DNA of 64,000 nt from Patescibacteria group bacterium (GTDB lineage: Bacteria > Patescibacteriota > Microgenomatia > UBA8517), in the NCBI GenBank assembly GCA_038206135.1, contig JBBRBD010000002.1:2896-66895 (forward strand), given 5' to 3'. This document shows positions 6,626 to 37,912 of this stretch, in pieces. The notes beneath the pieces were generated by a model. The model searched no databases. It was not told where the DNA came from and saw only the letters and a list, made by a program, of their open reading frames with translations. The position numbers and the translations under genes were made by a program. Each line of letters starts with the position of its first letter. Position 1 is the stretch's first letter.

Positions 6626-6757
6626 GCTCAGTCTCCTCTTCGAGATATATAATGTACTTGAGAATTATAACACTATAAGTCTATTTCTGCAATTCCTGAC
6701 ACTAATTAAACAGGCACAAAAAAAGTCGATTCTTTTGGATATGAATCGACTTTTGTT

Positions 6758-9989: not shown

Positions 9990-10743
9990 TTTAACAACAG
10001 TTCAACTCGCGATGTCTGGGGTTCAAAATTTTGTTTTGATTGACCCAGATATTCTTGAAGATAATAACATCGTTAGACACGCAGCAGATTTACGGTATGT
10101 CGGTATGTCTAAAGTTTTGGCAGTTAAGGACTTAATCCTAAATCGAAACTCTGAAGCAACCGTGAATGCAATTTCTGCAAATGTTATGGATTGCACAGAT
10201 GCTCTACATGATGTCGATTTTGTTCTTGTTGCAGGCTTGGGATCAGAGATTGTTACAACAAATGTAGCATTGAAGATTAGAGAACTGAACAAGATAGCAT
10301 TGTTCAGTGGCATCTATGAAAAAGCCGTTGCAGGAGAGGTCTTTATTGTTCATCCAACAATAGGGCCTTGCTACTCATGTTTTGCTAGTCGTTTGAGATC
10401 ATCAGAACCTCAAATACAGAAGGATGTTGATTACGGACTTCCAATTGACGAACTTAAGGCACAACCTGGACTTGGGTCTCATATTGTGAGAGTATCTTCA
10501 GTTTTTGCAGACTGGACATTACGCCTTGCAATCCATGATTCAAATATTTTGCCTTATTTCCCTGGTAATCTTGTAATATTGAGTAATGAGGCGTATAATT
10601 TTGGCAATGACAAGGAAGGTAATGCTCTCAGATTGCCACCTTCGTCTGCAAAGTGGCTTACAATAAAGAAATTACATAAGTGTAATATTTGTAGCCCACC
10701 AGATTTTCTGTTCGAATCGTTCGAAGAACTTGAAGGAGATTAA
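9880..10743 (+). CDS. E1-like ThiF/MoeB/HesA-family adenylyltransferase (minimal E1)
   Basis: Rossmann motif KLGVIGLGSLGSLTTVQLAMSGVQNFVLIDPDILEDNNIVRH (GxGxxG, then D.D.ve.sNl.Rq). Two CxxC pairs (CYSC ; CNIC). Strong RBS GAGGAAGG 8 nt upstream of the ATG at 9880, which lies inside the 3' end of the JAB ORF (110-nt overlap in a different frame). Confidence 0.7.
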   Translation: MNQRNNHWTRIEDLVGSGFSRLRQVKLGVIGLGSLGSLTTVQLAMSGVQNFVLIDPDILEDNNIVRHAADLRYVGMSKVLAVKDLILNRNSEATVNAISANVMDCTDALHDVDFVLVAGLGSEIVTTNVALKIRELNKIALFSGIYEKAVAGEVFIVHPTIGPCYSCFASRLRSSEPQIQKDVDYGLPIDELKAQPGLGSHIVRVSSVFADWTLRLAIHDSNILPYFPGNLVILSNEAYNFGNDKEGNALRLPPSSAKWLTIKKLHKCNICSPPDFLFESFEELEGD

Positions 10744-15112: not shown

Positions 15113-15427
15113 TTATTTTTGATATATCGTAAAGGTTAAAATCGAGTTTATTCCAATAAATCTAGCAATAATAACAAGCAGTAAGAATGACAATGCTAGA
15201 ACAACAATTCCAATTACTGCATATGTTGCCATGTTTCGTGCGGCTTCCGCTCTTTTAGGGTCACTTCCTGCCATAATAAGGTTAACGCCAGCCAAAAGCA
15301 AAATAATAAAGGCTACAATTCCCGCAAGCGGAATAGCTGCGCGCAAAACATTTGCAAATATATCTTCAAATTCTGAAAGAGTGTTTGGGGTACTAGTTAC
15401 AAGTTGTGCAAAAACTAAAGAGAACAT
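15113..15427 (-). CDS. TrbC/VirB2-family T4SS pilin-like protein
   Basis: 104 aa. Leader then two hydrophobic helices separated by AGSDPKRAEAARNMATY. Same architecture as the tandem pilin paralogs at 20.3-22.6 kb. Confidence 0.6.
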   Translation of the reverse strand: MFSLVFAQLVTSTPNTLSEFEDIFANVLRAAIPLAGIVAFIILLLAGVNLIMAGSDPKRAEAARNMATYAVIGIVVLALSFLLLVIIARFIGINSILTFTIYQK

Positions 15428-16951: not shown

Positions 16952-18136
16952 TTGAACTCTGTCATAATTCACAATATTTCAGATATGAAAATGTTTTTTA
17001 GAATCCACAAACAAAAAATTAAATATATACTAATTTTGTTTTTATTATCTCGAGTATTTCTAGAAGGAGCAGGTCTGATTGGTGATAGGTGGCTCAAAAA
17101 TGTCAGTACGAACCCTTCAGAGTGGCAAGAAACTAACACTAATATTCCATCCCTTGATATTTGGGCTGTGTGGGATTCTGGATGGTATTTAAATATTGCA
17201 AAATATGGCTATTCAAATGTCACACCAGAAAACCATCCATCAGTAGTTACACCGCAAATGCACAACATTGGGTTTTTTCCGTTGTACCCTGTTTTTATTC
17301 AAGGTATTTCATATATTACTCAAAATAATTATGTTGCCGCGTTAATTGTTTCGAACCTGGCCCTGCTAATTAGTTGTTTTTTACTCTACGAAATTGTTAT
17401 GGAGAAGTATGATGAAATGACAGCAAAACAGACTATAAAGTATTTACTAATTTTTCCCACGTCCTTTATCTTATCTGGTGTTTTTTCTGAGTCTCTTTTC
17501 CTCTTGTTTTTGTTAATATGTTTTTATTTTGCGCAAAAAGGAAAATGGGGAGTAGTTGGTGTCTCTGGTTATTTCCTTTCACTGACTCGGCCTACGGGGT
17601 TTCTACTGGTAATCCCGCTTCTGTTTCTGTATCTAAAAAATTGCAGGTTTGAATTTAAAAAAATAAAACCTAATATCTTATATCTTTCATTATTTGGTAT
17701 GGGAGTTTTTACTTTCATGATTTACACACACCTGTTAAATGGTGATTTTTTAGCCTATTTTCACGCGCAAGAAACAGGCTGGCTCGTCACACATTCTAAT
17801 CCACTAAACATGCTTCAAATGCTCTATTTATATAGTCCAAGCACAAGAATTGTTTTCTGGTTTATACTTGCAGAACTTTTTTTGATTTTTATACATATAA
17901 AGAAAGTTTCACTGGATTATTTGTTAGTCGCTGCAATTTTACTTGGCATACCTCTAATAGAGGGTTTTGGGCCAACTTTCAGTTTACCTAGAATGTCCGT
18001 CGTTGTTTTTCCTTTATTTATAATAATTGCAAAAATGGCAAAAGATAAATATGTTGATAGTGCATTAACATTCGGATTATTATTTCTTCAATTTATATTA
18101 ATGATTTTGTGGAGTAATGGAATTCTGATTATTTAA
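16952..18136 (+). CDS. PIG-V/GT-C-like mannosyltransferase-family membrane protein
   Basis: 394 aa, multi-TM. WDSGWYLNIAKYGY....FFPLYP resembles the conserved motif of PIG-V-type (GT76) and DUF2029-like lipid-linked glycosyltransferases. Confidence 0.45.
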   Translation: MNSVIIHNISDMKMFFRIHKQKIKYILILFLLSRVFLEGAGLIGDRWLKNVSTNPSEWQETNTNIPSLDIWAVWDSGWYLNIAKYGYSNVTPENHPSVVTPQMHNIGFFPLYPVFIQGISYITQNNYVAALIVSNLALLISCFLLYEIVMEKYDEMTAKQTIKYLLIFPTSFILSGVFSESLFLLFLLICFYFAQKGKWGVVGVSGYFLSLTRPTGFLLVIPLLFLYLKNCRFEFKKIKPNILYLSLFGMGVFTFMIYTHLLNGDFLAYFHAQETGWLVTHSNPLNMLQMLYLYSPSTRIVFWFILAELFLIFIHIKKVSLDYLLVAAILLGIPLIEGFGPTFSLPRMSVVVFPLFIIIAKMAKDKYVDSALTFGLLFLQFILMILWSNGILII

Positions 18137-18138
18137 TT

Positions 18139-19605
18139 TTAATAGCAATTCTTTAGAAGATTTTTATGGTACACAACAGATACGGAATCTTCAAATATTA
18201 CAGTCCATCCGTTATCTTTCAACGTTCCGATGAATTTGTAAAAGTCTGCAGGGTTGTACCATCCTGATTTTGTATTTGGGGTGTGCCAAAGGATTGTGTC
18301 AACACAAAATTTCTCGAATATTTCATTATAAGGGATATTACCACTTATTATGTTTTCATACGTATCAAATGCATTATTCAATTCATTTACCTTTGGTTCT
18401 TGTATCCAAACATACATCCTACCATCTATAAATGATTTTTCTGTGGGTATTTTCCAATTCAAGTAACTTCCCCAACTTGCCATAGTAAACACATGTTTAT
18501 GATTTACTTCTTCTATATACGCTATTGAATTATCAGAAGGGAAGAAATCTGACATTATAATGGTGCGGAATCTCAACTGTAAAAGGCACTCAACTACGAA
18601 AACTACTACTGTTATGACGGTTAGTGTATTCAAAAAGAAGTTTAGTCGATGCTTATCTATTTTGTGATCATTCTTCTGTAAATATTTCTCCTGAGCATAA
18701 ATTATTGTTGGTACTGCGCTTATTACAAATATTGGTACAAACCTTACTGACAGTATCCCTTGAATCAAAAGATACACAGTAAAAATATCTCTGAATCTCA
18801 TTTTCTTCAGAAAGTATAATGAGAAAAAAAACAAAAGAATAATAATAACAAACCCAAAACTAGGTAGATTTTTTATTGGCTGCCATTCAATAATATATTT
18901 TCGAAGATCGTTACTTAAGATTGTTCGAGCTGCTTCTCTCCAAGTTCCCAATCCATATGGTGTAAAGAGCGTTGCGAGTGTCGAAATTTGAATTGAAAGG
19001 GTTTTTTGTAACTTGTCTTCAAACGAAAATCTTTTTCTCTCAAGAATATAAATATCTATTAGTAAATACCCCCACAAATAAATTATTCCTAAAGAGAACC
19101 CCCCGTGCAAGTTTGACCACAAAAACATAAAGAGTGGGAGCAGTAAAAACATATTTCTTTTTCTTGAGAAAAAAAAATCAGTAAATTTAAACAAACAGAT
19201 GGTTAAAAAGAATGAAAAGACATGTGCGCGAACACCAAACCCACTAAGATATGAAGATGCAATTATTGGTATAAGCCATATTAACTCGAAGGACAAAAGT
19301 GTTGCTCCGAGAGTTGCAACTCCTGCAATAAAAATTGAAACAAGGCCATATCCTCCTATCTTATAAATGAATTTAAAGATAATGCTAGATAGCAACGAGT
19401 GATCCACATATTGAAAGGAAGGCATTGTGTAGCTGTATTGATCAAATTTAGGAATACCACTGGTTAATATATCTGTGGAATATTTTAAATGCCATGGAAA
19501 ATCTACATCAAAGAAGGTTGTCGCTGCTAAAAACAAGCCAACAAAGCAAACAAAAACAACAGCTTTCCTCGCAGTCAAAAAGTTTTTTATCGTACCGATT
19601 ACCAT
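18139..19605 (-). CDS. GT-C-fold glycosyltransferase-like polytopic membrane protein (paralog of 15437..16912)
   Basis: 488 aa. FFDVDFPWHLKYSTDIL and YSYTMPSFQYVDHS motifs shared with its paralog. Same TM topology pattern. Confidence 0.5.
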   Translation of the reverse strand: MVIGTIKNFLTARKAVVFVCFVGLFLAATTFFDVDFPWHLKYSTDILTSGIPKFDQYSYTMPSFQYVDHSLLSSIIFKFIYKIGGYGLVSIFIAGVATLGATLLSFELIWLIPIIASSYLSGFGVRAHVFSFFLTICLFKFTDFFFSRKRNMFLLLPLFMFLWSNLHGGFSLGIIYLWGYLLIDIYILERKRFSFEDKLQKTLSIQISTLATLFTPYGLGTWREAARTILSNDLRKYIIEWQPIKNLPSFGFVIIILLFFFSLYFLKKMRFRDIFTVYLLIQGILSVRFVPIFVISAVPTIIYAQEKYLQKNDHKIDKHRLNFFLNTLTVITVVVFVVECLLQLRFRTIIMSDFFPSDNSIAYIEEVNHKHVFTMASWGSYLNWKIPTEKSFIDGRMYVWIQEPKVNELNNAFDTYENIISGNIPYNEIFEKFCVDTILWHTPNTKSGWYNPADFYKFIGTLKDNGWTVIFEDSVSVVYHKNLLKNCY

Positions 19606-20237
19606 AACTTGGGTATAAGCCGGAACTTTACGAGAGTAGCGTATCCTTTGTATTTTTTTGAGTTAAATAGCAGTTTTTCCTCGTCAATAATACGCTTATA
19701 AACACAAAACACCCAGAAAGCAAACAAGAGTATTCTCAAAGTTTGAATTGGTGTAAGAATTAAAAACATTGTATTCACCCATAGATATGATAAATACATA
19801 GGATGTCGTATGTATTTATAAGGACCTGCAGTCACAATACCCCTATTTGAAGCAAAAATATCAATGGACTTCCCAAGGCTGTATATTGAATACGCTGTAA
19901 TTAAAGAACCAACAATAACGAGAATATCTACACCTGCTGCGTATCTGAAGTGTCCGAAGCCAAAAAATAGAGGGAGATATGTTCCGAGAATAGCCCAGAG
20001 ATATGAGGTTTTTCTACCTTTAGTGCTATTTGACGGTCGTCGAATCAGAAAAAATAGAGAAAACAAGACATTTGTTACAAGTGCAACTATCGCGAGTGTT
20101 AAATCTCTGTAAAGTAAATATCCAGGAGGAGAAGATATTACTGCATTTCTTAATGAAACAAGAGAACTTAAAAACCCACAAAAATATAAAGCAGAAATAA
20201 GCCCTGAGACGACATAATCTTGAGTAGTATTTCTCAT
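19599..20237 (-). CDS. Isoprenylcysteine carboxyl methyltransferase (ICMT)/phospholipid methyltransferase-family membrane methyltransferase
   Basis: 212 aa. IVTAGPYKYIRHPMYLSYLW matches the RHP.Y signature of the ICMT/PEMT family. Overlaps the GT-C gene by 7 nt, so the two are in an operon. Confidence 0.6.
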   Translation of the reverse strand: MRNTTQDYVVSGLISALYFCGFLSSLVSLRNAVISSPPGYLLYRDLTLAIVALVTNVLFSLFFLIRRPSNSTKGRKTSYLWAILGTYLPLFFGFGHFRYAAGVDILVIVGSLITAYSIYSLGKSIDIFASNRGIVTAGPYKYIRHPMYLSYLWVNTMFLILTPIQTLRILLFAFWVFCVYKRIIDEEKLLFNSKKYKGYATLVKFRLIPKLW

Positions 20238-20303
20238 TTAAGTATCTTATCAAAAAACAAACACTCCATCGAGGAGTGTTTGTAAAAAAACTAATGATAT
20301 TTT

Positions 20304-20645
20304 TTATGTGCCGGTTACGCTTGCAATTGAGAAATTCAAGATCGATACACCAAACACTGTTTGTACTAACTGTGCAATAGCCCATGCTGAGAATATAATT
20401 ACAAGACCAATAAGAGCTGCTGTAATTTGTCCTCGAGCGGCTTCTGTTTGAGCTTTATCTCCACCGGAGAGTACCCAACGGAGACCTCCGACGATAAGCA
20501 TAAAGAAGAAAATAAGTCCTGCAACGGCAACTATTAGTGTAATTGCCCAACTAACTAGATCACCCAATTGAAAACCAGTCGGATTTCCAACTCCACTAGG
20601 ACTTAAGTTGAATGATTGTGCGAACACTGTAGATAATAAATTCAT
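20304..20645 (-). CDS. TrbC/VirB2-family pilin-like protein (paralog 1)
   Basis: 113 aa. Leader, helix, SGGDKAQTEAARGQITAALIG, helix. Same two-helix pilin topology as the other paralogs. Confidence 0.6.
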   Translation of the reverse strand: MNLLSTVFAQSFNLSPSGVGNPTGFQLGDLVSWAITLIVAVAGLIFFFMLIVGGLRWVLSGGDKAQTEAARGQITAALIGLVIIFSAWAIAQLVQTVFGVSILNFSIASVTGT

Positions 20646-20788
20646 GTCATTTCGTCACCTCCTTAAAAGATTTTGTAAAAATCGTATATAATAACACGAT
20701 TCTTTTTTTAATGTCAAACTATACACACATGCTGATAGTTCATATATATTTATCGCGTATTTGGCAGGTAAAAGTCAAGAGGATAGTA

Positions 20789-21130
20789 TTAAGTGGCAGG
20801 TTGCATAAGCGGCGCTAGATTTATATTCAAAAGACTGATTCCAAAGACTGCCTCAACTAGTTTTGCAATTGCCCAAACACTAACCATAACTACCAGCCCT
20901 GTAATTGCTTGTGTTATTTGTGCTCGTGCATTTTCTATTTGAGCTTTATCTCCACCAGATGTAATCCATCTGATACCACCAATTAAAAGCATAAAAAAGA
21001 AGGCAAGGCCTCCAATCATAAACAAGAGCGTAATCATTTTTGGAATGAAGTCTCCAAAAAATGTGGCACCGTCTCCAGTCAGTTTAGGTGTTGCGAGGTT
21101 TGTAATCTGTGCGAAAACTGTTGAGTACAT
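20789..21130 (-). CDS. TrbC/VirB2-family pilin-like protein (paralog 2)
   Basis: 113 aa. TSGGDKAQIENARAQITQAITG loop between two hydrophobic helices. Confidence 0.6.
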   Translation of the reverse strand: MYSTVFAQITNLATPKLTGDGATFFGDFIPKMITLLFMIGGLAFFFMLLIGGIRWITSGGDKAQIENARAQITQAITGLVVMVSVWAIAKLVEAVFGISLLNINLAPLMQPAT

Positions 21131-21135
21131 GATAT

Positions 21136-21504
21136 TTATGGTGTCAGAGTTTTTATTGCTGCAGCAAGATTCAAAATATCAAAACCAAGTATCTGGCCGA
21201 CCAAACTCACGATAAAGACGCTAATCACAACAATTACAAGTCCAATTAGTCCGTTAGAGATGCGTTTTTTAGCCGTTTCTACAGCTCCTTTATCTCCACC
21301 CGCAGTAATCCATCCAATTGCGCCTATGAAAAGCGTAAAAATAAACCAGATTCCAGCAACAACAGTCATTACAGCAATGATTGTTGAGATAAGCTTTTCA
21401 AAATTTGCTGCGGGATCTCCACCAGTTGCAAAAATTCCAGTTCCAGGTCCGGAGAAGCCACCCGTAGTTGGTGCAAAATCTAATGTGCCTGCAAGTCTAT
21501 TCAT
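21136..21504 (-). CDS. TrbC/VirB2-family pilin-like protein (paralog 3)
   Basis: 122 aa. TAGGDKGAVETAKKRISNGLIG loop. 5-nt gap to neighbours. Confidence 0.6.
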   Translation of the reverse strand: MNRLAGTLDFAPTTGGFSGPGTGIFATGGDPAANFEKLISTIIAVMTVVAGIWFIFTLFIGAIGWITAGGDKGAVETAKKRISNGLIGLVIVVISVFIVSLVGQILGFDILNLAAAIKTLTP

Positions 21505-21505
21505 A

Positions 21506-21838
21506 TTAAAATGTTAAAGTAGGGTGTAAAAGCGCATCTGCTTTTCCATAAACAAGTAACCCAATTACACCGGCGATCAGGAATGCTCCAACTAAAAATA
21601 CAAGGCCTATGATTGTTTGATATATTTTTGCCCACGCCGATTCCATCCCTTTAGGATTATCACCAGCTGCTAAGAATGCGTAACCTGCCAAGATAAAATT
21701 AAGAAGTGCCCAGATCCCTCCAGCAACAATAAGAACATTAAAAATAAGTTGCAATATGTTTCCAAGCGCAGTTGCTGGGTTACTTCCCCAAACTGCAGTA
21801 GCAGGGGGTTGGTGAATTGTTCCAAAAGGATCAGTCAT
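21506..21838 (-). CDS. TrbC/VirB2-family pilin-like protein (paralog 4)
   Basis: 110 aa. AAGDNPKGMESAWAKIYQTIIG loop between hydrophobic helices. Confidence 0.55.
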   Translation of the reverse strand: MTDPFGTIHQPPATAVWGSNPATALGNILQLIFNVLIVAGGIWALLNFILAGYAFLAAGDNPKGMESAWAKIYQTIIGLVFLVGAFLIAGVIGLLVYGKADALLHPTLTF

Positions 21839-21880
21839 ATAAGTTAAATAATAATAGCAAATAAAAGCTTCAATTGAAAA

Positions 21881-22237
21881 CTACGGACAAGGATTGGTAG
21901 GTGTTCCACAAGAACTTACATTTGGTCCTGTAATAAAATTGACACCAGTAATAGACTCCACAATTCTTATTATAAAAAATGAAGCTAGAACAACAATGAA
22001 CCCAATAACCGCCCAAGTTATCGCTTGGTGACCTTGTGCTGAAGCTTTTGGGTCATTGTTCCCAGCACCCATTATTACTTGTAAACCTCCACCTACAAGA
22101 AGGAATACTACAATGACACCAGCAACAACTAATGATCCGCTCAAAATAATCGAAACTAGATCGCCGATGCTTTTTGTCTGTCCAAACGGTGTATTTAGTT
22201 CTTTTCCAATATCTACGGCTGCAAAAATATTAGTCAT
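21881..22237 (-). CDS. TrbC/VirB2-family pilin-like protein (paralog 5)
   Basis: 118 aa. MGAGNNDPKASAQGHQAITWAVIG loop. C-terminus contains Cys (…SSCGTPTNPCP). Confidence 0.55.
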   Translation of the reverse strand: MTNIFAAVDIGKELNTPFGQTKSIGDLVSIILSGSLVVAGVIVVFLLVGGGLQVIMGAGNNDPKASAQGHQAITWAVIGFIVVLASFFIIRIVESITGVNFITGPNVSSCGTPTNPCP

Positions 22238-22243
22238 AAATGT

Positions 22244-22624
22244 TTATACAAATGTGCTTGTGATCCCCGGCAAGTTAAATATAGCGCCAATAATTTGAAT
22301 TATGATATAAGCCGTGAGCATGAGCAACAAACCAAGAAAGCCATTCTTAATTCTTTCTTGTCCTGCCTTAACTTTAGCAGGATCACCAGCCGCCGTCATA
22401 AGACTGATCCCTGCAAGCACCAAGTTGATAATGAGTGCAATACCTCCTAAATAAAACAAAAGCCCGACTATTCCATATGGGTAATTGTTGATCAAATTTG
22501 AGAGGTTTGCGTTTCTTAGCAAATAACTGTTGCCTGGTGTCTGATTAATTGACTTTTCAAGATCATCCAAACAACCTGCATTAAAAGTACCAGCAGGGCA
22601 TGCTGCTAAAATTATTGAATACAT
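22244..22624 (-). CDS. TrbC/VirB2-family pilin-like protein (paralog 6)
   Basis: 126 aa. TAAGDPAKVKAGQERIKNGFLG loop. N-terminal region has two Cys residues. Confidence 0.55.
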   Translation of the reverse strand: MYSIILAACPAGTFNAGCLDDLEKSINQTPGNSYLLRNANLSNLINNYPYGIVGLLFYLGGIALIINLVLAGISLMTAAGDPAKVKAGQERIKNGFLGLLLMLTAYIIIQIIGAIFNLPGITSTFV

Positions 22625-22639
22625 AAATTATTGTAACAT

Positions 22640-24157
22640 CTAAAAAAGCCCGAGTACATTAACTCCAATTATTCGTAAAATAAAGACAGCAAATGCAAGC
22701 ATTACAAGGCCAGAGAATGCAGAGATTAAAAGTTCTTTTCCCATTTGGAGTTTCGAGACATCTCCACTGCTTGTAATAATTTGGAATGCTGCGGCAATAA
22801 GAACAAGAATTACGAGTCCACCACCAATGCCCAAACCCCATGTTATGAAAAAAGCTTCAAAATTGGTAATAGTCTCAATTGGCACACAACCGATTGCGGT
22901 ATCCACACCTATGATTCCTGCCTTGTTACAATATCCAGCGAAAGCGGCGATGGCAGAGGGTGGTGCAACTTGATTGCATGCCGTTAGGGTAGGACAGCAA
23001 TAGTCAATACTTGTTCCCGTATTAGGAACTGATCGAGAGCAATATACACCACTTGCTTTTGCACAATCAGCGCGACTAATTCCTCCGGGGATACAGGTAT
23101 TCAGAGGCACGCTGCAAATTGAGCCTCTACAACTCCCAGACATACATTCTGAATCAGTTGTACAAGTCCCGGCGAGGGGAATTCTGTTTTCTTTACATTT
23201 ACAAACACCACTACTTGCTTCTATATCAATATCACCCTGTAAACAACTAAATGAGTTGTTTTGTGAGCTATAACAACAATAGCCTCCAATTGAGCCACAA
23301 CCATTGTTATTGGGGATTACACAACTGCCTATCATTGATTGATTAAAGTTTGAACCTGAAGCGTCTACTGGATTAATCCAACAACCATTACATTGACTTT
23401 TGGTGGTACTTCCTTGGCAAGTGATACTCACCACTCCTGCACATTGTCCTCCTCGATTTCCACAATTAAAGTTTCCTGTTTGAACTTGCTTTGTACAAAC
23501 TCCAGGAGCTACAGCTCCGCTTGCGGGAGATGTTGTACACCAATAATTGTCACCACCTACGCATGTAAACCCATTCAGGGCATCACATTGGTCGTTTGTA
23601 ACACATGAAGTTCCATCTCCTCCTTGGCCAGGTATTGCCCCCGGGAGACACTTGCTTCCGATACAAGTAAGACCTTGTTTGCAAGGGTTTGTCCCGGAAC
23701 ATGCCTCGCAAGTATCTGGAAGAGCCGGAGGTTGTGATGAAACAGTTACAGATCCGCTGCAAAGATCTGTTTGTGAGCCCAACAATCCTGCTTGTCTAAA
23801 AACAAGCGTGTTAGCACCATCTACAAAAAGGGGATTACCATCGTTATCGTTCAAAACGGTAAAAGTCCCTCCTGTGTCTGAAATTTGATTCCCAACATCA
23901 ATCCATTTTCCCGTTGAAGGAGAATATATATTGAATGTCGAGTTGGATTTTGATATCCCGCCAAATCCACCCGAGATTTGCATTTCAATATTGTTTCCTG
24001 GTTGAACAGTTGCTGTTAAAACAATCAAATCACAGCTTGCAGCACTGACAGTATTAGGCTTAATACCTGATAAGCATAAGAATAGTGCGCTTATGAGGAA
24101 CAGCAATAAGAATCTCTTCGAATTTTGTAATAACAATTTTCCTTGGTGGAAATTCAT
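22640..24157 (-). CDS. Secreted Cys-rich protein (about 400-aa extracellular domain with more than 40 Cys in CxxC/EGF-like spacing) fused to a C-terminal TrbC/VirB2 pilin domain
   Basis: 505 aa. Signal peptide (KRFLLLFLISALFLCLSGIKPNTVSA). Long Cys/Gly/Thr-rich region. C-terminus FFITWGLGIGGGLVILVLIAAAFQIITSSGDVSKLQMGKELLISAFSGLVMLAFAVFILRIIG is the pilin two-helix module. Confidence 0.6.
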   Translation of the reverse strand: MNFHQGKLLLQNSKRFLLLFLISALFLCLSGIKPNTVSAASCDLIVLTATVQPGNNIEMQISGGFGGISKSNSTFNIYSPSTGKWIDVGNQISDTGGTFTVLNDNDGNPLFVDGANTLVFRQAGLLGSQTDLCSGSVTVSSQPPALPDTCEACSGTNPCKQGLTCIGSKCLPGAIPGQGGDGTSCVTNDQCDALNGFTCVGGDNYWCTTSPASGAVAPGVCTKQVQTGNFNCGNRGGQCAGVVSITCQGSTTKSQCNGCWINPVDASGSNFNQSMIGSCVIPNNNGCGSIGGYCCYSSQNNSFSCLQGDIDIEASSGVCKCKENRIPLAGTCTTDSECMSGSCRGSICSVPLNTCIPGGISRADCAKASGVYCSRSVPNTGTSIDYCCPTLTACNQVAPPSAIAAFAGYCNKAGIIGVDTAIGCVPIETITNFEAFFITWGLGIGGGLVILVLIAAAFQIITSSGDVSKLQMGKELLISAFSGLVMLAFAVFILRIIGVNVLGLF

Positions 24158-24163
24158 ATGTGT

Positions 24164-25087
24164 TTAAAATAACCCAAGAATAGTTATCCCTAGTATTCTA
24201 AAAATGAAGACTGAAAGTGCTAGTAGAATAATTCCAGAAACGGCAGACATCAAAAGCTCTTTTCCTACTTGTAATCTTTTTGGATCTCCTTGTGATGTCA
24301 TTACCATAAACGAAGCATACACTAAGAATAGTGTACCAATTCCTCCCGCGATACCTAAGCCCCATTTAAGGAAAAAAGCGGCAAATGTGTTAGTATCGCC
24401 AATCGGTATGCATCCAATTGCAGTATCAATATTGTTGGTACTGCAATTTCCTTGAATATTAACACTCGTAACTGGCTGGGTTCCAGTCCCCGGATTTCCA
24501 ATTTGTCCGTTTGGGAGACAGCAGGACGAAACATTGCTGGGACAGCTACCGGTTATTGATGTTTCTGTTCCACTACAAGCTGTTTTGCATGTTGCTTTTG
24601 GATTCACTGAAGTACACGCACCTGGATTAACAGCAGTTGTACAAGCAGAGGCACAGGTTGCTGAGTCTGTGTATGGAGCAGGTGGGCCACTTGTGCAATC
24701 AGGGATTGATGTCTGTGGATCATAATCACATTGAGAGCAAGATTTAGCGCCAGTAGCCGAGGTATCACACTTATAACCTCCATTGGGAACTGTTTGTGTA
24801 GTACAAGGGATAAATAAAGGCTGATTAATACAAGAACTCACTGGTTGGCTCCGACAAAATGAAAAAAGATCTGAGCTCGGAGGGGTAGCTCCCGTAGCAC
24901 AACTATTGGCAGCTGGATTGCCTCCTGGAGCTGGACCCGTTTCACAAAATTGTGTTGCATCTTGATATACACAAACAACACAACCTTTACTGGGGTCAGG
25001 ACAAGACGATGCTTGAGCTAATACTTCTTTTTTTGAAACATTGAACAACAAAAAGACTAGGACTATGAATGATATTGCTTTTTTCAT
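24164..25087 (-). CDS. Secreted Cys-rich protein fused to a C-terminal TrbC/VirB2 pilin domain (smaller paralog of 22640..24157)
   Basis: 307 aa. Signal peptide. Cys-rich extracellular domain. C-terminus FFLKWGLGIAGGIGTLFLVYASFMVMTSQGDPKRLQVGKELLMSAVSGIILLALSVFIFRILG. Confidence 0.6.
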   Translation of the reverse strand: MKKAISFIVLVFLLFNVSKKEVLAQASSCPDPSKGCVVCVYQDATQFCETGPAPGGNPAANSCATGATPPSSDLFSFCRSQPVSSCINQPLFIPCTTQTVPNGGYKCDTSATGAKSCSQCDYDPQTSIPDCTSGPPAPYTDSATCASACTTAVNPGACTSVNPKATCKTACSGTETSITGSCPSNVSSCCLPNGQIGNPGTGTQPVTSVNIQGNCSTNNIDTAIGCIPIGDTNTFAAFFLKWGLGIAGGIGTLFLVYASFMVMTSQGDPKRLQVGKELLMSAVSGIILLALSVFIFRILGITILGLF

Positions 25088-25167: not shown

Positions 25168-26865
25168 ATGAAAAGAATTAGACTCCTTTTTTTGCTCGCT
25201 GTTTTTACTTCCACTTTGTTTCTTTTTCCAAAAGCTTTTTCTTTCGCTGATATCAATTGTGATAGCGGCAGTTTAAGTGGATCTGATATTGATGTGTGCT
25301 TGGCTAAACTTCAACACGATGCTGATGCCTTGGCACCTGCAAACGAGAATAATAAAAAAGAACTTGCTGCATTGCAGGCTCAAGTTATTAAGCTAAAAGC
25401 AAGTATTGCAAGCTTAACCAAACAAGTTAGCTCACTGAGTACTAAAATTACGACAAGAACAAGTGATCTTTCGTATGCTCAAAAGGTTTTTAATGAAAAG
25501 GCTAACAACCAATACAAGGTCCTGAGGCTATATGATCCGCTTTCAGCTTTTCTTGAAAACCAAAGTGCAAAAGATGTTTTTCTCCAGCTTGAGATGAGGC
25601 AGCGAGCAGTTGACGGTGATCGCATAACGATGGAGACCTATTCAAAAGATTTGGCAGCACTTGCTTCTGACAAAGCTACTCTTGAAAAAAACAAAACAAG
25701 TTTAGCTAATTTGCAAGTCTCAGTGGACAAACGCGCAACTTTTTTGAGTGGAGAAGTTGCAAAAGTTGAAGACTATTTAGCTAAACTTTCTAGTAGGCAA
25801 GAAGAGCTCTTAGCGTTAAAAGCTGGAGGATTTGAAACATCAGTCGGAGATACACCTCCAACTCTAGACCCTTGTAGTGGTGCCCCTGGAACAAGTAGTT
25901 TTTGTGATCCAGGCTTTAGACCAGCATTTGCAGGGTTTAGCTTTGGAGCACCTCACAGAACAGGTATGAGCCAATATGGGGCACTGGGAAGAAGTAAGCA
26001 AGGCCAAAATGCAGAAACAATTCTTGCAGCATACTATCAAGGTTCATCGTTAAATAAAGGGTATCCAGATACCACTATTGGAGTGAGTGGTTTTGGGAGA
26101 AAACCAATTGAAGAATATCTTTTGGGCCTCTATGAAGTTCCCGAAAGTTGGGGCGATCAAGGTGGTTTTGAGGCATTAAAAGCTCAAGCAGTTGCAGCAC
26201 GTAGTTATGCACTCTCTGTAACTAACAATGGTGCAGGAACTATTTGTACTACAGAGGCGTGCCAAGTATATAAACCTCAGCTTAAAACAGGAAAATGGGC
26301 AGAAGCAGTGAGAGCTACTAAAGGCTGGGTGCTTATAAAAGATGGGGGACCAGCGAAAGCATATTTTGCGGCATCAAGTGGTGGATATACAATCAGCCAA
26401 TGGGGATGGAGCGGCATTAAAGATGCTGCTGGTGATTGGCCAGCAACTGCATATGAGAAGGTTGGTGGTTCGCCTTGGTTTTACAAAGGTTGGTTTAGGT
26501 CGAGAAGCGGGGCAACTTGTGGGCTTTCGAACCCTTGGCTTACGAGTACTCAAATGGCTGATATTCTAAATGCATGGCAGGTACTTTTTAACGGAGGTGG
26601 CGATCAGGGCAGAATTAGTCCACACGACAAGTGTTTTGGTGGAAACCCATATTCTATATCTGATTTAGCTTCAATTGGGGGATATTCAAGTGTAAGTAAT
26701 GTAAATGTAGTTTATGGAAACGATGGATCTACAAAGCAGCTTACTTTTCAAACAAATAAAGGCTCTGTTACGATAAACGGTTCTGATCTTCAAAAAGCCT
26801 TTAATCTAAGAGCGCCTGGAAATATTGGTATTAAAAGTTCGCTCTACAATATAGAGAAACTCTAA
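25168..26865 (+). CDS. SpoIID/LytB-domain peptidoglycan hydrolase with an N-terminal signal peptide and coiled-coil region. Candidate cell-wall remodelling (VirB1-analogous) enzyme of the T4SS locus.
   Basis: 565 aa. Coiled-coil-like N-terminal third (KKELAALQAQVIKLKASIASLTKQVSSL…). C-terminal block HRTGMSQYGALGRSKQGQNAETILAAYYQG…ALKAQAVAARSYAL…AYFAASSGGYT is typical of the SpoIID/LytB family. Confidence 0.7.
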   Translation: MKRIRLLFLLAVFTSTLFLFPKAFSFADINCDSGSLSGSDIDVCLAKLQHDADALAPANENNKKELAALQAQVIKLKASIASLTKQVSSLSTKITTRTSDLSYAQKVFNEKANNQYKVLRLYDPLSAFLENQSAKDVFLQLEMRQRAVDGDRITMETYSKDLAALASDKATLEKNKTSLANLQVSVDKRATFLSGEVAKVEDYLAKLSSRQEELLALKAGGFETSVGDTPPTLDPCSGAPGTSSFCDPGFRPAFAGFSFGAPHRTGMSQYGALGRSKQGQNAETILAAYYQGSSLNKGYPDTTIGVSGFGRKPIEEYLLGLYEVPESWGDQGGFEALKAQAVAARSYALSVTNNGAGTICTTEACQVYKPQLKTGKWAEAVRATKGWVLIKDGGPAKAYFAASSGGYTISQWGWSGIKDAAGDWPATAYEKVGGSPWFYKGWFRSRSGATCGLSNPWLTSTQMADILNAWQVLFNGGGDQGRISPHDKCFGGNPYSISDLASIGGYSSVSNVNVVYGNDGSTKQLTFQTNKGSVTINGSDLQKAFNLRAPGNIGIKSSLYNIEKL

Positions 26866-26893: not shown

Positions 26894-27529
26894 ATGCCAG
26901 ACATTTTTACAAAAAAGGAAGACACATCAAACGAACCAATTGTAGCTGTCTCTCAGACGCCCGAACAAAGCTACAACCCAGTTTCTGCATACTGTAAATA
27001 TCCTGCAAATGTTCATTTTGATGGGACTGATGCGGATGAGAAGATAGTTCTCCTTCTTCGGAAGCATTGGCTCACAAATCTACGCTGGATTTTAACAGCC
27101 TCAGTTCTTATATTCGTTCCACTCCCATTCGTATATTTCCCAATTTTGAATTTTTTACCTGAGCGTTTTTTGGTGGTGACAATTCTTTTTTGGTATCTGG
27201 TAACAAGCGCATATATTTTGGAGAAGTTCTTAAGCTGGTTTTTTAACGTATACATAATAACAGACGAGCGAGTGTTTGATGTTGATTTTTATAATCTTGT
27301 TGATCGAGATATCAGTGACGCAAACATTGCAGATATTCAAGATGTAACAAGTTCAATTAGAGGGGCGATTAGAACTAGTTTTGATTATGGAGACATTCTA
27401 ATACAAACTTCGGCAGAAATTCCAGAACTCGATTTTGAGGCAGTTCCACATCCTGATGAAGTAGCTAAAATTCTGCGAAGTCTGCGTGTTGAAGAAGAAC
27501 AAGAGCAGCTGGAAGGGAGGGTTCGCTAA
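26894..27529 (+). CDS. Bacterial PH-domain (bPH_2, YdbS/YdbT-like) membrane protein
   Basis: 211 aa. EKIVLLLRKHWL followed by two TM helices and a C-terminal acidic tail. Architecture matches the DUF304/bPH_2 family. Confidence 0.5.
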   Translation: MPDIFTKKEDTSNEPIVAVSQTPEQSYNPVSAYCKYPANVHFDGTDADEKIVLLLRKHWLTNLRWILTASVLIFVPLPFVYFPILNFLPERFLVVTILFWYLVTSAYILEKFLSWFFNVYIITDERVFDVDFYNLVDRDISDANIADIQDVTSSIRGAIRTSFDYGDILIQTSAEIPELDFEAVPHPDEVAKILRSLRVEEEQEQLEGRVR

Positions 27530-27779: not shown

Positions 27780-29633
27780 ATGGACTATGTGAAAATTTTA
27801 GGGGCACCTTCAGCCACTGCAACAACACAAACGCACGAACTTGAACTTCCAGATGGAGGAACACTCTTCCTTCTGATAACACTTCATTCACCAGAAGCGT
27901 CACTGACTCGTATCGAAGCAATTCGAGGTGCCGTTAATTTTTTGCATCACGAAGTAACTAAAGCTGGTTTTAATTTTGAATCATTTGGAGTTTCACTTGA
28001 AAAAACTCTTATTTACCCGCAATTTGAGGCAGTTTGTGCGTATGTTTCAAGTGATGTTGTGTATCTTTTTGCACTTGGAAATATGCAGGCAATGCTTATG
28101 CGAAATAACAATCTTGTGTCTCTCATCTCTGGTTCAAAAACACTCCAATCTGCATCTGGATATCTAAAAAGAGGAGACTCTGTACTTTTAGTTTCGAATG
28201 CATTTTTGGAAATTGCAAAAACTGAGGAACTCATTCCTTATATAGTAGGGAATAAACTGAATGCACTTGAGTCAGATACTGCAACTCGAGTACAAGCAAG
28301 CGAACAACGCGGAGAGTGTGGAATTTTGTGTCTTTCAGATCAAATTTCAGGTTCTCCTTCAATTTCCGTTCCTGAAGCAGAAGATGAGGGTCCGACACTT
28401 GAAGAGGCGACAGAAATTGAGGCAGCTGAAGAAGAACTTCAACTGGAATCCAAACCGCTCGAAGAACCTGAAGAAGTAGAAGTAACTCCACAGATGGAAG
28501 AACGACCGGTTTTTGCAAAAACAGACTCTCCATACGAAGCTCGCAGTAAAAGTAAGCGAATGGCATATGCTGGTGTAGGGCTTCTGATACTTTTAGGTAT
28601 AAGTATCTTCTTTGGTAATAAGGCACGGCTTAAGAAGCAAGAGGCGGCCTCTGTTACAAAAGTAGTAGCCGATGCACAGCAATCACTAGACGAAGCAAAA
28701 TCTATTTCTTCTATAAATAAGTCTCGTGCCAGGGATCTTATTACTAACGCACGAGATCAAGTACTTGGAGTTCACACTGAGACAAAATACCCAGAACTCA
28801 TTTCTATTAAAGATGCGCTTACTCAAAGTCTTGGAGATGTGGCTGGTGTTTACGAAATTCAACCGACAATTTTTTCAGATCTGACACTAATTTCTCAATC
28901 TACAACGGCCGATGGTCTTTCAATTTCAGACAATTTAGTCCGAGTGTTGTCAAAAAACGATAAAAGAGTAGTAACTATTGAGCTTCCTGGAAAAAGAACT
29001 TCTTCTCTGAGTGGTCTTACTCAAGTAAATGGTGCTGCTGAAATTGCAGCCTATACAAAGCGAACATTTGTAATGGGGAGTGATGGTGTTTATGATATCT
29101 CAAATTCTGCACAAAAGCAGATAGATTTGCCCGCAAATCAAGACCAACTATTGTTCTCTTCATTTGCAGGGAACTTATATGTTGTTGATAAATCACAAAA
29201 CCAAATCTGGAGATATTCGGGTGATGGAACAAGTTTTGCGGACAAGAAGGAATGGCTATCTCCTGGAGTAACAGTTGATTTTTCAAAAGCAACAGCAATG
29301 GGTATTGATAGTTCAATATGGGTGTTTAGTGGGACTGGAAAGCTTACTAAGTTTACTATTGGAAATCCTCAAACAATCCCACTTTCTGGGATCACTGATA
29401 CTTTGTCAGACCAAACCCTATTTTTTACAGATAGTGATAGTGAGAGCTTATACTTTTTAAATCCTCAATCGAAAGCAATATACGTTTTTGATAAGAGTGG
29501 TGAACTGATTGCGACATACAGTGATGTTTCTCTTAAAGAGGCACAACATTTTATCGTTTCTGAAAGTGACAAAATTATGATCTACTCAGTTGGCTCAAAG
29601 CTATACTCAATTCCTATCAAGCATATTAAGTAA
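27780..29633 (+). CDS. Hypothetical bitopic membrane protein. N-terminal ~190 aa are faintly PP2C-phosphatase-like, followed by an acidic linker, one TM helix and a large extracytoplasmic C-terminal domain.
   Basis: 617 aa. Segments VYLFALGNMQAMLMRNNNLVSL and LKRGDSVLLVSNAF resemble PP2C strand motifs (GDSRa.l.r ; GD.lllcSDGl). TM helix MAYAGVGLLILLGISIFFG in the middle. Confidence 0.45.
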   Translation: MDYVKILGAPSATATTQTHELELPDGGTLFLLITLHSPEASLTRIEAIRGAVNFLHHEVTKAGFNFESFGVSLEKTLIYPQFEAVCAYVSSDVVYLFALGNMQAMLMRNNNLVSLISGSKTLQSASGYLKRGDSVLLVSNAFLEIAKTEELIPYIVGNKLNALESDTATRVQASEQRGECGILCLSDQISGSPSISVPEAEDEGPTLEEATEIEAAEEELQLESKPLEEPEEVEVTPQMEERPVFAKTDSPYEARSKSKRMAYAGVGLLILLGISIFFGNKARLKKQEAASVTKVVADAQQSLDEAKSISSINKSRARDLITNARDQVLGVHTETKYPELISIKDALTQSLGDVAGVYEIQPTIFSDLTLISQSTTADGLSISDNLVRVLSKNDKRVVTIELPGKRTSSLSGLTQVNGAAEIAAYTKRTFVMGSDGVYDISNSAQKQIDLPANQDQLLFSSFAGNLYVVDKSQNQIWRYSGDGTSFADKKEWLSPGVTVDFSKATAMGIDSSIWVFSGTGKLTKFTIGNPQTIPLSGITDTLSDQTLFFTDSDSESLYFLNPQSKAIYVFDKSGELIATYSDVSLKEAQHFIVSESDKIMIYSVGSKLYSIPIKHIK

Positions 29634-32450: not shown

Positions 32451-32518
32451 AATGACTCAATTTCAATACATCTTGATAGAAAATAATCGAAACTGTTTAT
32501 ACTCGTTACTTCACAATG

Positions 32519-32603
32519 CGGAGGCGGTGAGATTCGAACTCACGAGACTCTTACGAGTCGTGGATTAGCAATCCACTGTACTGGGCCACTATACGACGCC
32601 TCC
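32519..32603 (-). tRNA. tRNA-Ser (anticodon GCT)
   Basis: Manual fold. Acceptor GGAGGCG/CGCCTCC. Anticodon stem GTGGA/TCCAC with loop TTGCTAA. Long variable arm. T-loop TTCGAAT. Confidence 0.75.
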
Positions 32604-32667
32604 AAAACTTGAACTCATCGAATTTTAGCACAACGTTTCGCTCAAGTCTGATATAATCAGGTCTCAC

Positions 32668-32751
32668 GGAGGCGTGTCCGAGCGGTTTATGGAGCTGGTC
32701 TTGAAAACCAGTGGGCGCAAGCCCTCACAGGTTCGAATCCTGTCGCCTCCG
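32668..32751 (+). tRNA. tRNA-Ser (anticodon TGA)
   Basis: Acceptor GGAGGCG/CGCCTCC. Anticodon stem CTGGT/ACCAG with loop CTTGAAA. Long variable arm. T-loop TTCGAAT. Confidence 0.75.
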
Positions 32752-32797
32752 CTAATTGTGTCCTCTTCAAAGTTTGGTATATACTAAATTCATAGAT

Positions 32798-33301
32798 ATG
32801 GCTCCCAAACCTCCCATCCAGCCAGAAATAGAAAAGGTATTATTGTCTTGGACTGCAGCCTCACGTCCATTTAAAAGACGATCTCGCGAGTTTTATATCA
32901 CACTTATTTCTGTTGTAGGTCTTATTGGCGCAATTCTATTTTTAATTGAGGGGGCGATGCCTGCTATATTATTAGGAACTCTCGTGTTTTTGTTTTATGT
33001 ATTAAGTACCGTTGCTCCAGACCAAGTAGAATATAAAATTACGACCTTTGGTATTCGTTTTGCTGAACGATTAACGGAATGGGAAAAGATTGGAAGATTT
33101 TGGTTTGTAAATCGATTGGGAAGTGATTTATTAGTACTTGAGGTTCATGTCCTTCCAGGAAGACTAGAGCTTGTAGCACCAAAAGAAGAACATTCAAAGA
33201 TTGAAGAAACTCTAATGAAATACTTGATCAAAGAAGAAGTTCCACCTGGAGTTTTCGACAAAGCAGCACAATGGGCTAGCAAAAAGCTTCCACAGAGCTA
33301 A
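32798..33301 (+). CDS. Hypothetical membrane protein (about 167 aa, two TM helices)
   Basis: ORF with the internal ATG at 32798 chosen, because the 32756 start would overlap tRNA-Ser. Confidence 0.45.
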   Translation: MAPKPPIQPEIEKVLLSWTAASRPFKRRSREFYITLISVVGLIGAILFLIEGAMPAILLGTLVFLFYVLSTVAPDQVEYKITTFGIRFAERLTEWEKIGRFWFVNRLGSDLLVLEVHVLPGRLELVAPKEEHSKIEETLMKYLIKEEVPPGVFDKAAQWASKKLPQS

Positions 33302-33354
33302 TATTGTATAATACTTCAGCTCGAAAGTTCCTTGTATTAATCTTTTATTTTCCT

Positions 33355-33426
33355 GTACTCATAGCTCAATGGATAGAGTAGCGGCTTGCGGAGCCGTCGA
33401 TCCCAGTTCGAATCTGGGTGGGTACA
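33355..33426 (+). tRNA. tRNA-Arg-like with apparent anticodon GCG (G34 rather than the usual A34 of tRNA-Arg ACG)
   Basis: Manual fold. Acceptor GTACTCA/TGGGTAC. D stem GCTC/GAGT. Anticodon stem GCGGC/GCCGT with loop TTGCGGA. T-arm CCCAG TTCGAAT CTGGG. Body resembles the tRNA-Arg(CCG) at 37913. Confidence 0.55.
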
Positions 33427-33433
33427 CAAGTAG

Positions 33434-33516
33434 GGTGGGTTCGCATAGCGGCCAATTGCACCGGTTTCGAAAACCGGAGGGGTAACCCTTCACAGGTTCA
33501 AATCCTGTACCCACCG
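33434..33516 (+). tRNA. tRNA-Ser (anticodon CGA)
   Basis: Acceptor GGTGGGT/ACCCACC. Anticodon stem CCGGT/ACCGG with loop TTCGAAA. Long variable arm. T-loop TTCAAAT. Confidence 0.75.
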
Positions 33517-33548
33517 CAAGGCGCGTGAAACCTGAAGTTAAAGTATAA

Positions 33549-33636
33549 GGAGAGGTCGCATAGTGGCCTAGTGCAGCGGTTTACTAAACCGCCATATCGC
33601 AAGATATCGAGGGTTCGAATCCCTCCCTCTCCGCCA
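33549..33636 (+). tRNA. Class II (long variable arm) tRNA with apparent anticodon ACT (A34) and encoded CCA. A Ser-type body with an unusual anticodon.
   Basis: Acceptor GGAGAGG/CCTCTCC plus G plus CCA. D stem GCA/TGC (3 bp, Ser-like). Anticodon stem GCGGT/ACCGC with loop TTACTAA. 17-nt variable arm. T-arm GAGGG TTCGAAT CCCTC. Confidence 0.5.
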
Positions 33637-37824: not shown

Positions 37825-37906
37825 GGAGGTGTCGCCTAGTGGCTATGGCACACGCTTGGAAAGCGTGCAGGGCAACCTGTCGTGGGTTCGAGTCCCACCA
37901 CCTCCG
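37825..37906 (+). tRNA. tRNA-Ser (anticodon GGA)
   Basis: Acceptor GGAGGTG/CACCTCC. Anticodon stem CACGC/GCGTG with loop TTGGAAA. Long variable arm. T-loop TTCGAGT. Confidence 0.75.
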
Positions 37907-37912
37907 CAACGA

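Follow-up and report, generated by a model that had tools for sequence, protein, structure and literature searches.

Cysteine-rich, pilin-like proteins at the head of a PF18895 array in a Microgenomatia genome

We analyzed a 64,000-nucleotide stretch of DNA from an ultra-small, Woesebacteria-like Patescibacteria group bacterium of the Microgenomatia (GenBank assembly GCA_038206135.1, contig JBBRBD010000002.1, positions 2,896 to 66,895; hereafter the window), in which two adjacent genes, here called A505 and B307, encode proteins with a signal peptide, a cysteine (Cys)-rich ectodomain and a C-terminal two-helix module of the Pfam family PF18895 (T4SS_pilin). Judging from their sequences, we hold with moderate confidence that both are paralogs of the leading, or class-1, member of the PF18895 pilin array that accompanies the Patescibacteria type IV secretion system (T4SS), and that they serve as minor, surface-displaying and likely partner-binding subunits. 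Pilin arrays of this kind have already been published; the ectodomain-bearing class-1 pilin is widespread and apparently undescribed.

The two open reading frames (ORFs) of 505 and 307 amino acids (aa) lie next to each other on the minus strand, exactly where a first-pass annotation of the sequence had placed them, with A505 located downstream of B307 after a gap of 6 bases. An N-terminal hydrophobic, signal-like segment is present in both proteins, as that annotation had likewise proposed. From sequence and hydropathy, both follow the same plan of a Sec signal peptide, a Cys-rich ectodomain and a C-terminal two-helix module. The features of the two genes are as follows.

24164 to 25087, minus strand: B307, class-1 pilin-like protein of 307 aa, array gene 1 (ORF, PF18895 match at E = 1.6e-4, homologs).
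22640 to 24157, minus strand: A505, class-1 pilin-like protein of 505 aa with 37 Cys, array gene 2 (ORF, PF18895 match at E = 9.4e-5, homologs).
24041 to 24157, minus strand: Sec signal peptide of A505 at residues 1-39, with VSA|AS as the predicted site for signal peptidase I (hydrophobic segment 13-35, sequence reading).
23738 to 24034, minus strand: A505 residues 42-140, tentative beta-sandwich, immunoglobulin (Ig)-like, between the conserved Cys42 and Cys133 (AlphaFold2 (AF2) model, Foldseek).
22907 to 23737, minus strand: A505 residues 141-417, Cys-rich region with 33 Cys (Cys invariance in homologs).
22643 to 22906, minus strand: A505 residues 418-505, junction DTAIGCVP and two-helix pilin module with the terminus GVNVLGLF (PF18895 at 435-496, alignment, hhalign).

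In B307, which holds 22 Cys, the signal peptide comprises residues 1-24 with an AXA-type cleavage site (VLA|QA), followed by a Cys/Ser/Thr/Pro-rich ectodomain at ~25-219, a Cys-loop with the junction TAIGCIP at 215-228 and the two-helix module at 232-303.

Cys accounts for 7.3% of A505 (37 residues) and 7.2% of B307 (22 residues). Against a background of 0.80% in the window's 59 other ORFs, this enrichment is well outside chance (binomial P = 1e-23 for A505 and 2e-14 for B307). The more than 40 Cys initially counted in the larger protein were an overcount, as there are 37, or 36 after removal of the signal peptide. The CxxC motifs that had been described are present, two in each protein, while the C-x-G-x-C motif reported alongside them is absent from both sequences. 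Conservation of the Cys pattern, which the first-pass annotation had proposed as a check, is evident: ~78% of the Cys are kept in full-length homologs down to 33-40% identity. In the A505 family, Cys is invariant at 28 of 36 ectodomain positions vs. 39 of 348 other residues (six full-length homologs), and in the B307 family at 17 of 22 positions vs. 18 of 180 other residues. Cys positions are consequently about seven times better conserved than other positions in both families. Together with the even Cys counts described below, this pattern points to an ectodomain fold constrained by disulfides, whose formation we infer from the sequences. Self-comparison of the A505 Cys-rich region and ectodomain found no internal repeats. 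A module common to the A505 and B307 ectodomains was considered and rejected, the similarity between them being weak and probably compositional.

The same architecture recurs in related proteins. Among 5.8 billion clusters, A505 has six other full-length relatives with 76, 75, 78 (truncated), 38, 36, and 33% identity, and B307 has three with 63, 44, and 44%. The A505 architecture is kept in seven full-length sequence clusters, with homologs at 33-81% identity, and uninterrupted ORFs are found both for A505 here together with P0002, P0003, P0005, P0053, and P0054, and for the B307 family (P0011-P0013). In addition, identical A505 and B307 proteins are encoded in the NCBI contig and in an independent Logan assembly. 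These data bear directly upon the concern, raised by the first-pass annotation itself, that the genes might be frameshift artefacts, and equally upon an assembly error; in either case, the gene of a secreted Cys-rich protein would have been fused with an independent pilin gene. A single observation would favor such an artefact: in the closest related genome, a Woesebacteria metagenome-assembled genome (MAG; L003, DAIEQM010000038.1), the A505 ortholog is interrupted at the linker between ectodomain and module by one in-frame TAG (position 7475), which splits it into a 400-aa secreted product (P0004) and a 68-aa module ORF. The break amounts to one stop codon within the same frame rather than to two genes read in separate frames, and it could reflect a sequencing error, a pseudogene or a natural release of the ectodomain. 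Given the intact ORFs here and in relatives, the identical sequence in two assemblies, the conservation of the Cys, and >120 representative proteins that have one ectodomain and one C-terminal module, we rejected the artefact as barely credible.

The C-terminal module had been described as a pilin two-helix module nearly identical to the neighboring stand-alone pilins. Its homology is upheld, but the near identity is not. A505 and B307 match PF18895 with 22.9 bits (E = 9.4e-5) and 22.2 bits (E = 1.6e-4), respectively, all eight tandem array proteins match this family with the six small ones exceeding its curated cutoff, and hhalign of a 35-sequence fused-module profile against the seven stand-alone pilins of the window yielded a probability of 98.2% (E = 3.8e-14, 72 columns). 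At the level of identity, the A505 and B307 modules share 21-26% with the stand-alone pilins and constitute a separate subclass. Hydropathy, alignment, and AF2 all describe the module as a pair of hydrophobic helices connected through a short polar loop (…TS-x-GD-P-x-[KR]-…), and in the B307 model (46-sequence alignment, predicted local distance difference test (pLDDT) 75.5), the hairpin H232-264/H269-303 is predicted at pLDDT 85-91. A PF18895 match (E ≤ 0.01) is present in 45 of 46 relatives, and many close relatives have precomputed PF18895 matches. Because of the PF18895 matches, the hhalign result, and the confidently modeled hairpin, we conclude that the C-terminus is not an unrelated membrane anchor, which the first-pass annotation had named as an outcome that would undo it, but is homologous to the neighboring pilins.

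We then searched 1.84 billion representative proteins (50% identity-level clusters) exhaustively with a module profile using HMMER; the cutoffs E ≤ 1e-3, 1e-10, and 1e-30 yielded 40,932, 7,044, and 458 proteins, respectively. The architecture was examined in 146 proteins, namely 144 of the best 150 matches plus A505 and B307. A single module at the extreme C-terminus was found in 128 of these, with N-terminal extensions of 37-419 aa (median 137, the maximum being A505), a median ectodomain Cys content of 8.4%, an even Cys count in 110 proteins and a signal-peptide-like start in 122. A505 is the largest ectodomain pilin encountered in our protein searches. The architecture differs from that of canonical VirB2/TrbC/TraA pilins, as had been stated, but within the Microgenomatia it is common rather than rare (at least 458 clusters). 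The junction motif T-A-I-G-C-[IV]-P is common to all, and in 140 of 180 cases there is a further Cys 10-14 residues upstream, which implies a small disulfide loop abutting helix 1. The presence of a signal peptide also follows the length of the N-terminal region: class-1 proteins with ≤26 residues before TAIGC have none, whereas nearly all of those with ~30 or more residues have a canonical one. A leader is thus added just in those proteins whose large N-terminal domain has to pass through the membrane, which argues that the N-terminus of the module is extracytoplasmic. It should be noted that five proteins of 500-820 aa (P0055, P0058, P0067, P0094, and P0101) contain 6-8 separate module matches per polypeptide, which means either that true tandem-pilin polyproteins exist or that gene calling has merged the members of arrays.

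The disulfide loop is also relevant to the idea that the ectodomains are releasable cargo, i.e. defensin-like antimicrobials or toxins that are cleaved from a pilin-like carrier and delivered to a host. Dense disulfides are likewise found in secreted toxins and defensins, one of the 46 relatives has a weak Pfam beta-defensin match (E = 4.6e-5), and the nonsense codon in L003 would yield a soluble ectodomain. Still, neither Pfam nor fold searches linked A505 or B307 to toxins or defensins, neither a conserved protease site nor a gene for a protease was noted, and the near-invariant loop directly next to helix 1 argues for permanent attachment. We regard cargo delivery as very improbable.

B307 and A505 are followed by six tandem genes for small, nearly Cys-free PF18895 pilins of 110-126 aa (20304 to 22624, minus strand), which were assigned to classes 2-7 by Pfam and positional orthology and lack signal peptides. 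These and the associated features are listed below.

22244 to 22624, minus strand: small pilin ORF.
21881 to 22237, minus strand: small pilin ORF.
21506 to 21838, minus strand: small pilin ORF.
21136 to 21504, minus strand: small pilin ORF.
20789 to 21130, minus strand: small pilin ORF.
20688 to 20717, minus strand: promoter-like site with an extended -10 (11/12 matches), within the 143-nt gap that precedes the last array gene.
20304 to 20645, minus strand: small pilin ORF, last array gene.
20257 to 20283, minus strand: strong terminator-like hairpin of 11 pairs plus T-run, directly after the last array gene.
15113 to 15427, minus strand: distal, ninth PF18895 pilin of 104 aa, class 8 (Pfam E = 1.1e-8).

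An alignment of the 8 closer module sequences was used to scan for related loci, which identified 43 genomic loci in addition to L002 and L046. The module subfamily occurs in Microgenomatia MAGs labeled Woesebacteria, Shapirobacteria, Blackburnbacteria, and 'Microgenomates group'. A TAIGC-type gene in 1-3 copies heads the array at its 5' end in almost every one of the 43 loci, as is also the case in L002 and L046, and the class-1 gene is followed by either one or 6-7 small Cys-free pilins. The exceptions are two loci with class-1 at the 3' end, one with none, and three with no adjacent small pilin. Class-1 proteins in these loci range from a 103-aa bare module with 2 Cys up to several hundred aa. 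When the window pilins were compared with 16 other genomes, the best match of each was found in the corresponding ordinal position, with 85-177 bits as compared to 45-69 bits for paralogs of its own genome, the sole exception being the pair 20789-21130/20304-20645 (105 bits). Orthologs of the distal pilin at 15113-15427 occupy the last array position in other genomes. Since same-position orthology is stronger than own-genome paralogy, specialized, co-assembling subunits are indicated. Judging by these sequence comparisons, the array of the Microgenomatia consists of about eight paralog classes that diverged long ago and keep a fixed order, and such ancient, fixed-order classes argue for a heteromeric assembly instead of interchangeable antigenic variants. 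Ectodomains (0 to >400 aa) and gene duplication are both confined to class 1, the class defined by the motif C-x10-14-TAIGC[IV]P. No homology links the class-1 ectodomains of different lineages, and in many genomes the class-1 pilin is bare. Many MAGs with record titles of 'uncultured Gammaproteobacteria' or 'Pseudomonadales' (L004, L005, L010, L011, L013, L015, and others) also carry Microgenomatia-type arrays with the SpoIID neighborhood described below; these titles are probably wrong taxonomic labels.

Expression signals set the last array gene (20304-20645) apart. Besides the promoter-like site in front of it, it is the only gene of the array with a perfect AAGGAGGTGA Shine-Dalgarno sequence, and among its orthologs 8 of 23 have a strong Shine-Dalgarno sequence vs. 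0-3 of 23 for the other classes, a suggestive but weak signal given that ORF starts are uncertain in this comparison. The last array gene may encode the major subunit.

Divergence from the closest genome, L003, is unevenly distributed. Window and L003 share 65-92% identity throughout their array proteins, with the B307 ectodomain as the exception.

Six small pilins, window vs. L003: 65-84% identity.
SpoIID-like protein, window vs. L003: 86% identity.
A505, window vs. L003: ectodomain 82% identity, module 80%.
B307, window vs. L003: module 92% identity, ectodomain 35%.

In the B307 comparison (window 24164-25087 vs. L003 5290-6267), the hyper-divergence is confined to the ectodomain, as would be expected of a surface under diversifying selection or of a domain replacement. 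The slower rate of A505 and the genes on the other side of class 1 would be compatible with a further explanation, in which the ectodomain is not a partner-binding adhesin but a base or wall-spanning collar that takes the assembly across the peptidoglycan and the S-layer of a monoderm cell. The following genes are divergently oriented neighbors of the array.

25168 to 26865, plus strand: SpoIID-like lytic transglycosylase-type protein with an N-terminal coiled coil (SpoIID Pfam E = 4e-16).
26894 to 27529, plus strand: 211-aa membrane protein, conserved divergent neighbor.
27780 to 29633, plus strand: 617-aa unknown protein, conserved divergent neighbor.

Across the 45 loci, a class-1 pilin is adjoined by the SpoIID-like gene in 35, the 211-aa protein gene in 27, and the 617-aa protein gene in 30. 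This conserved pairing with a SpoIID-type cell-wall enzyme would suit a collar, as would an A505 ectodomain that evolves at the rate of its housekeeping neighbors (82%) and has a low-charge, G/S/T/P-rich composition resembling that of wall-associated proteins. A collar is harder to reconcile with ectodomains that range from 0 to >400 aa without homology between lineages and with the hyper-divergent B307 ectodomain (35% vs. 92% for its module), and since many genomes have a bare class-1 pilin, the ectodomain is not an obligatory structural part. We consider the collar improbable. The SpoIID-type enzyme itself is, by sequence, a candidate cell-wall-opening partner and a candidate functional analogue of VirB1, a component mostly missing from these genomes according to the relevant passages of Quinonero-Coronel et al. 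2025 (PMC12102498).

The reading of the class-1 proteins as surface-displaying subunits can be laid out as a sequence of steps. Sec would export A505 and B307, and their signal peptides would be removed (at VSA|AS and VLA|QA, respectively). The ectodomains would then fold beyond the cytoplasmic membrane, locked by 18 (A505) and 11 (B307) potential disulfides, while remaining tethered through the short disulfide loop (C-x10-14-TAIGC) to the hydrophobic two-helix hairpin. The short K/R-containing loop of the hairpin would point toward the cytoplasm and its C-terminus would lie outside. Conjugative pilins have such a topology: N-out, loop-in, C-out. Because the hairpin is the same module, the class-1 proteins would co-assemble with the six or seven small pilins, at low copy number, into the surface structure of a VirB4/PrgI-type T4SS, where they would present a binding domain that varies by lineage and most likely mediates attachment to the surface of a partner or host cell. 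The low stoichiometry is suggested by steric limits, as a VirB2-type helix could not accommodate a 20-40 kDa domain on each of its subunits (an estimate from published pilus geometry), and by the last array gene, which alone combines a strong promoter-like site with a perfect Shine-Dalgarno sequence, with weak cross-genome support. We thus infer co-assembly and pilus formation, a minor or tip stoichiometry and an adhesin function for the class-1 proteins; a tip-adhesin role is consistent with their topology, their operon position, and the fast-evolving B307 ectodomain. A more far-reaching model, in which the Microgenomatia, and perhaps other Patescibacteria, build a heteromeric T4SS filament from about eight pilin paralogs whose leading member is an adhesin-pilin with a swappable, disulfide-rich host-recognition ectodomain, is offered tentatively and is in our view more doubtful than not.

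A number of results weigh against a role of A505 and B307 as T4SS subunits that bind a partner. To begin with, both score below the Pfam gathering cutoff of PF18895 (26.6 bits), none of the eight array proteins matches PF04956 (TrbC) at E ≤ 0.1, and hhalign of both pilin profiles against authentic Agrobacterium VirB2 gave a probability of <1%, the query being a single sequence, 100% identical to PDB 8cue, and not a deep VirB2/TrbC profile. Searches of PDB sequences with the fused-module and window-pilin profiles returned chance matches only and no PDB pilin, and the fold matches of the hairpin to solved structures were not significant. As sequence similarity to VirB2 is missing and the fold matches are not significant, the names "pilin" and "VirB2-like" rest upon PF18895, topology, and T4SS context, and what the first-pass annotation called a VirB2/TrbC module is better termed a PF18895 VirB2-like module. 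The ectodomains, for their part, offer no known binding fold: at E ≤ 0.1, Pfam has no family in either of them, and searches of PDB and viral folds gave nothing significant for the Cys-rich parts of A505 or for B307, which leaves the proposed EGF- or defensin-like character unsupported. The AF2 model of A505 is poor (pLDDT 55 overall), with residues 150-220 partly ordered (pLDDT 77-85). Its residues 42-140 form seven strands in a low-confidence region (pLDDT 55-69), for which Foldseek retrieved only FN3/Ig/PKD/macroglobulin-type PDB entries (E = 1e-4 to 1e-2) over ~105-130 residues with a target template modeling score ≤0.58. An Ig-like, binding-type domain is accordingly suggested by the model as a tentative assignment. 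Among the ectodomains of 46 relatives, Pfam recognized a few weak matches and one cohesin domain (P0029), which, like the Ig-like domain, is of a binding type and counts in favor of a binding role. The A505 ectodomain is not fast-evolving, with 82% identity to its L003 ortholog, and the 64-kb window contains no Dsb, MdbA, or VKOR gene; disulfide machinery genes are reported to be enriched elsewhere in genomes of the Candidate Phyla Radiation (CPR).

The remaining objections concern the secretion system. The presence of VirB4-like and PrgI-like genes in the window speaks for the T4SS reading, but virB4 is 15-17 kb from the array. The T4SS core genes of the window are the following.

1637 to 3589, minus strand: VirB4-like ATPase (TraG P-loop E = 6e-31, DUF87, AAA_10).
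3591 to 4283, minus strand: 230-aa unknown protein between the VirB4-like and PrgI-like genes.
4286 to 5383, minus strand: PrgI/VirB3-like protein (PrgI E = 9.5e-7, above its cutoff).

In none of the 45 related loci was virB4 found within 6 kb of the array. Moreover, no T4SS pilus has been observed in Patescibacteria, and reviews call it a possibility (PMC12857230). These points would be compatible with a simpler view, in which the PF18895 hairpin is a membrane anchor or oligomerization domain, no pilus is formed, and the Cys-rich domains cover the cell surface or wall zone as adhesins or envelope structural proteins. The absence of any sequence similarity or significant fold match to the canonical pilins of conjugation, the lack of a reported Patescibacteria T4SS pilus, the virB4 genes not adjacent to Microgenomatia arrays, and conserved neighbors that are envelope proteins (SpoIID-like, membrane proteins) all speak in its favor. 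On the other hand, a set of about eight ancient, fixed-order hairpin paralogs is more typical of a multi-subunit fiber or stalk, and one transmembrane helix would be enough for anchoring. Furthermore, the homologous array of Southlakia is essential and located within the T4SS cluster, according to the passages on it in Wang et al. 2023 Cell (PMC10633639). We judge the hairpin to be rather unlikely to act solely as an anchor.

The window is chromosomal, with genes for transfer-messenger RNA, SmpB, nine transfer RNAs (tRNAs), DnaG, and sigma-70. Two genes between the array and the distal pilin, along with several others elsewhere in the window, complete its description.

19599 to 20237, minus strand: ICMT-like membrane methyltransferase, between array and distal pilin.
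16952 to 18136, plus strand: PMT_2-type glycosyltransferase, between array and distal pilin.
8907 to 10743, plus strand: pair of JAB-like and ThiF-like genes (ubiquitin-like modification genes).
47058 to 48281, plus strand: archaeal-type S-adenosylmethionine synthetase (PF01941).
54675 to 55328, plus strand: DDE_3 transposase.
59988 to 61220, plus strand: Fic-domain protein.

In L002, a GT87-type glycosyltransferase gene (5378-6688) occupies the equivalent place. These neighboring genes suggest a possible glycosylation of the Ser/Thr/Pro-rich ectodomains. With phmmer, the PMT_2 and ICMT genes of the window matched nothing at E ≤ 1e-5 among the 45 related loci. Five of the tRNA genes are for tRNA-Ser (32518-33636 and 37825-37907), with four of them located within ~1.1 kb. 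One of these (33549-33636) was called with the anticodon ACT, for which A34 is unusual in bacteria.

Patescibacteria constitute a large share of bacterial diversity and, it seems, spend their lives attached to other cells. In the single species examined, both the T4SS and its pilin array proved essential, but an adhesin belonging to this system has yet to be found. The conserved class-1 paralog, whose variable exported domain would be locked by disulfides, offers a concrete candidate for making contact with the partner cell. Should it prove to be an adhesin-pilin, it would be the first case of a receptor-binding domain built covalently into a T4SS pilin and would explain why the phylum shows no separate T4SS adhesin, whereas if the hairpin is simply an anchor, the proteins would still represent an abundant and undescribed class of CPR surface proteins. 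The arrays are likewise recast as fixed multi-subunit assemblies and not as pools of antigenic variants, and the ectodomains provide defined targets for binding, localization, and host-range comparison.

The closest published counterparts are the VirB2-like arrays of Patescibacteria. In its passages on these arrays, the study of Quinonero-Coronel et al. 2025 (PMC12102498) counts 441 arrays of 2-11 genes, which are especially abundant in the Microgenomatia, treats their members as small pilins, suggests antigenic or host-range variation by analogy with Bartonella, and reports that no adhesins were detected for the T4SS. The array described here shares with them the PF18895 family, the tandem divergent two-helix genes, and a T4SS-bearing, relaxase-poor, monoderm epibiont lineage. 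It differs from the arrays as there portrayed in a leading class with Sec-exported, Cys-rich ectodomains and in paralogs that are positional orthologs. We found no mention of ectodomain-bearing pilins in the array papers' passages on their pilins or through full-text literature searches. A preprint reports that PF18895 dominates freshwater-specific structure clusters, which fits the diversity found here.

The canonical VirB2/TrbC/TraA pilins (e.g. the Agrobacterium T-pilus, PDB 8cue and 8exh) have in common with the present proteins a hydrophobic two-helix hairpin with a short polar or basic loop, extracytoplasmic N- and C-termini, and genes encoded with a VirB4 ATPase system. They have a long cleaved leader, no folded extracellular domain, and no detectable sequence relationship to the proteins described here, whereas in the window the small paralogs are leaderless, the class-1 proteins have large, disulfide-rich N-terminal domains, and the host is a monoderm. 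VirB5-type tip proteins and CagL would be analogous as proposed low-copy subunits that present a binding surface on a T4SS pilus, but they are separate, soluble helical proteins without a pilin module, while here the binding domain would be covalently attached to a pilin paralog. No Pfam or fold similarity to VirB5/CagL or PrgB was found in A505 or B307, so the likeness is one of function only. Tandem amplification of T4SS pilin genes in host-dependent bacteria is also known from Bartonella Trw (trwL/trwJ) and the VirB2 genes of Anaplasma, which are thought to diversify host-surface interactions (as cited in the array passages of PMC12102498). Those paralogs are recent and similar, in contrast to the ancient, fixed-order, and orthologous ones found here, in which the variability is concentrated in the class-1 ectodomain. 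Lastly, the class-1 proteins share a design principle, though not folds, assembly machineries, or domain order, with certain adhesins of unrelated pili. FimH and CfaE of the chaperone-usher pili and TcpB and CofB of type IV pili all combine a pilin-type assembly module with a separate receptor-binding domain and occur at low copy number among the small major subunits of a fiber.

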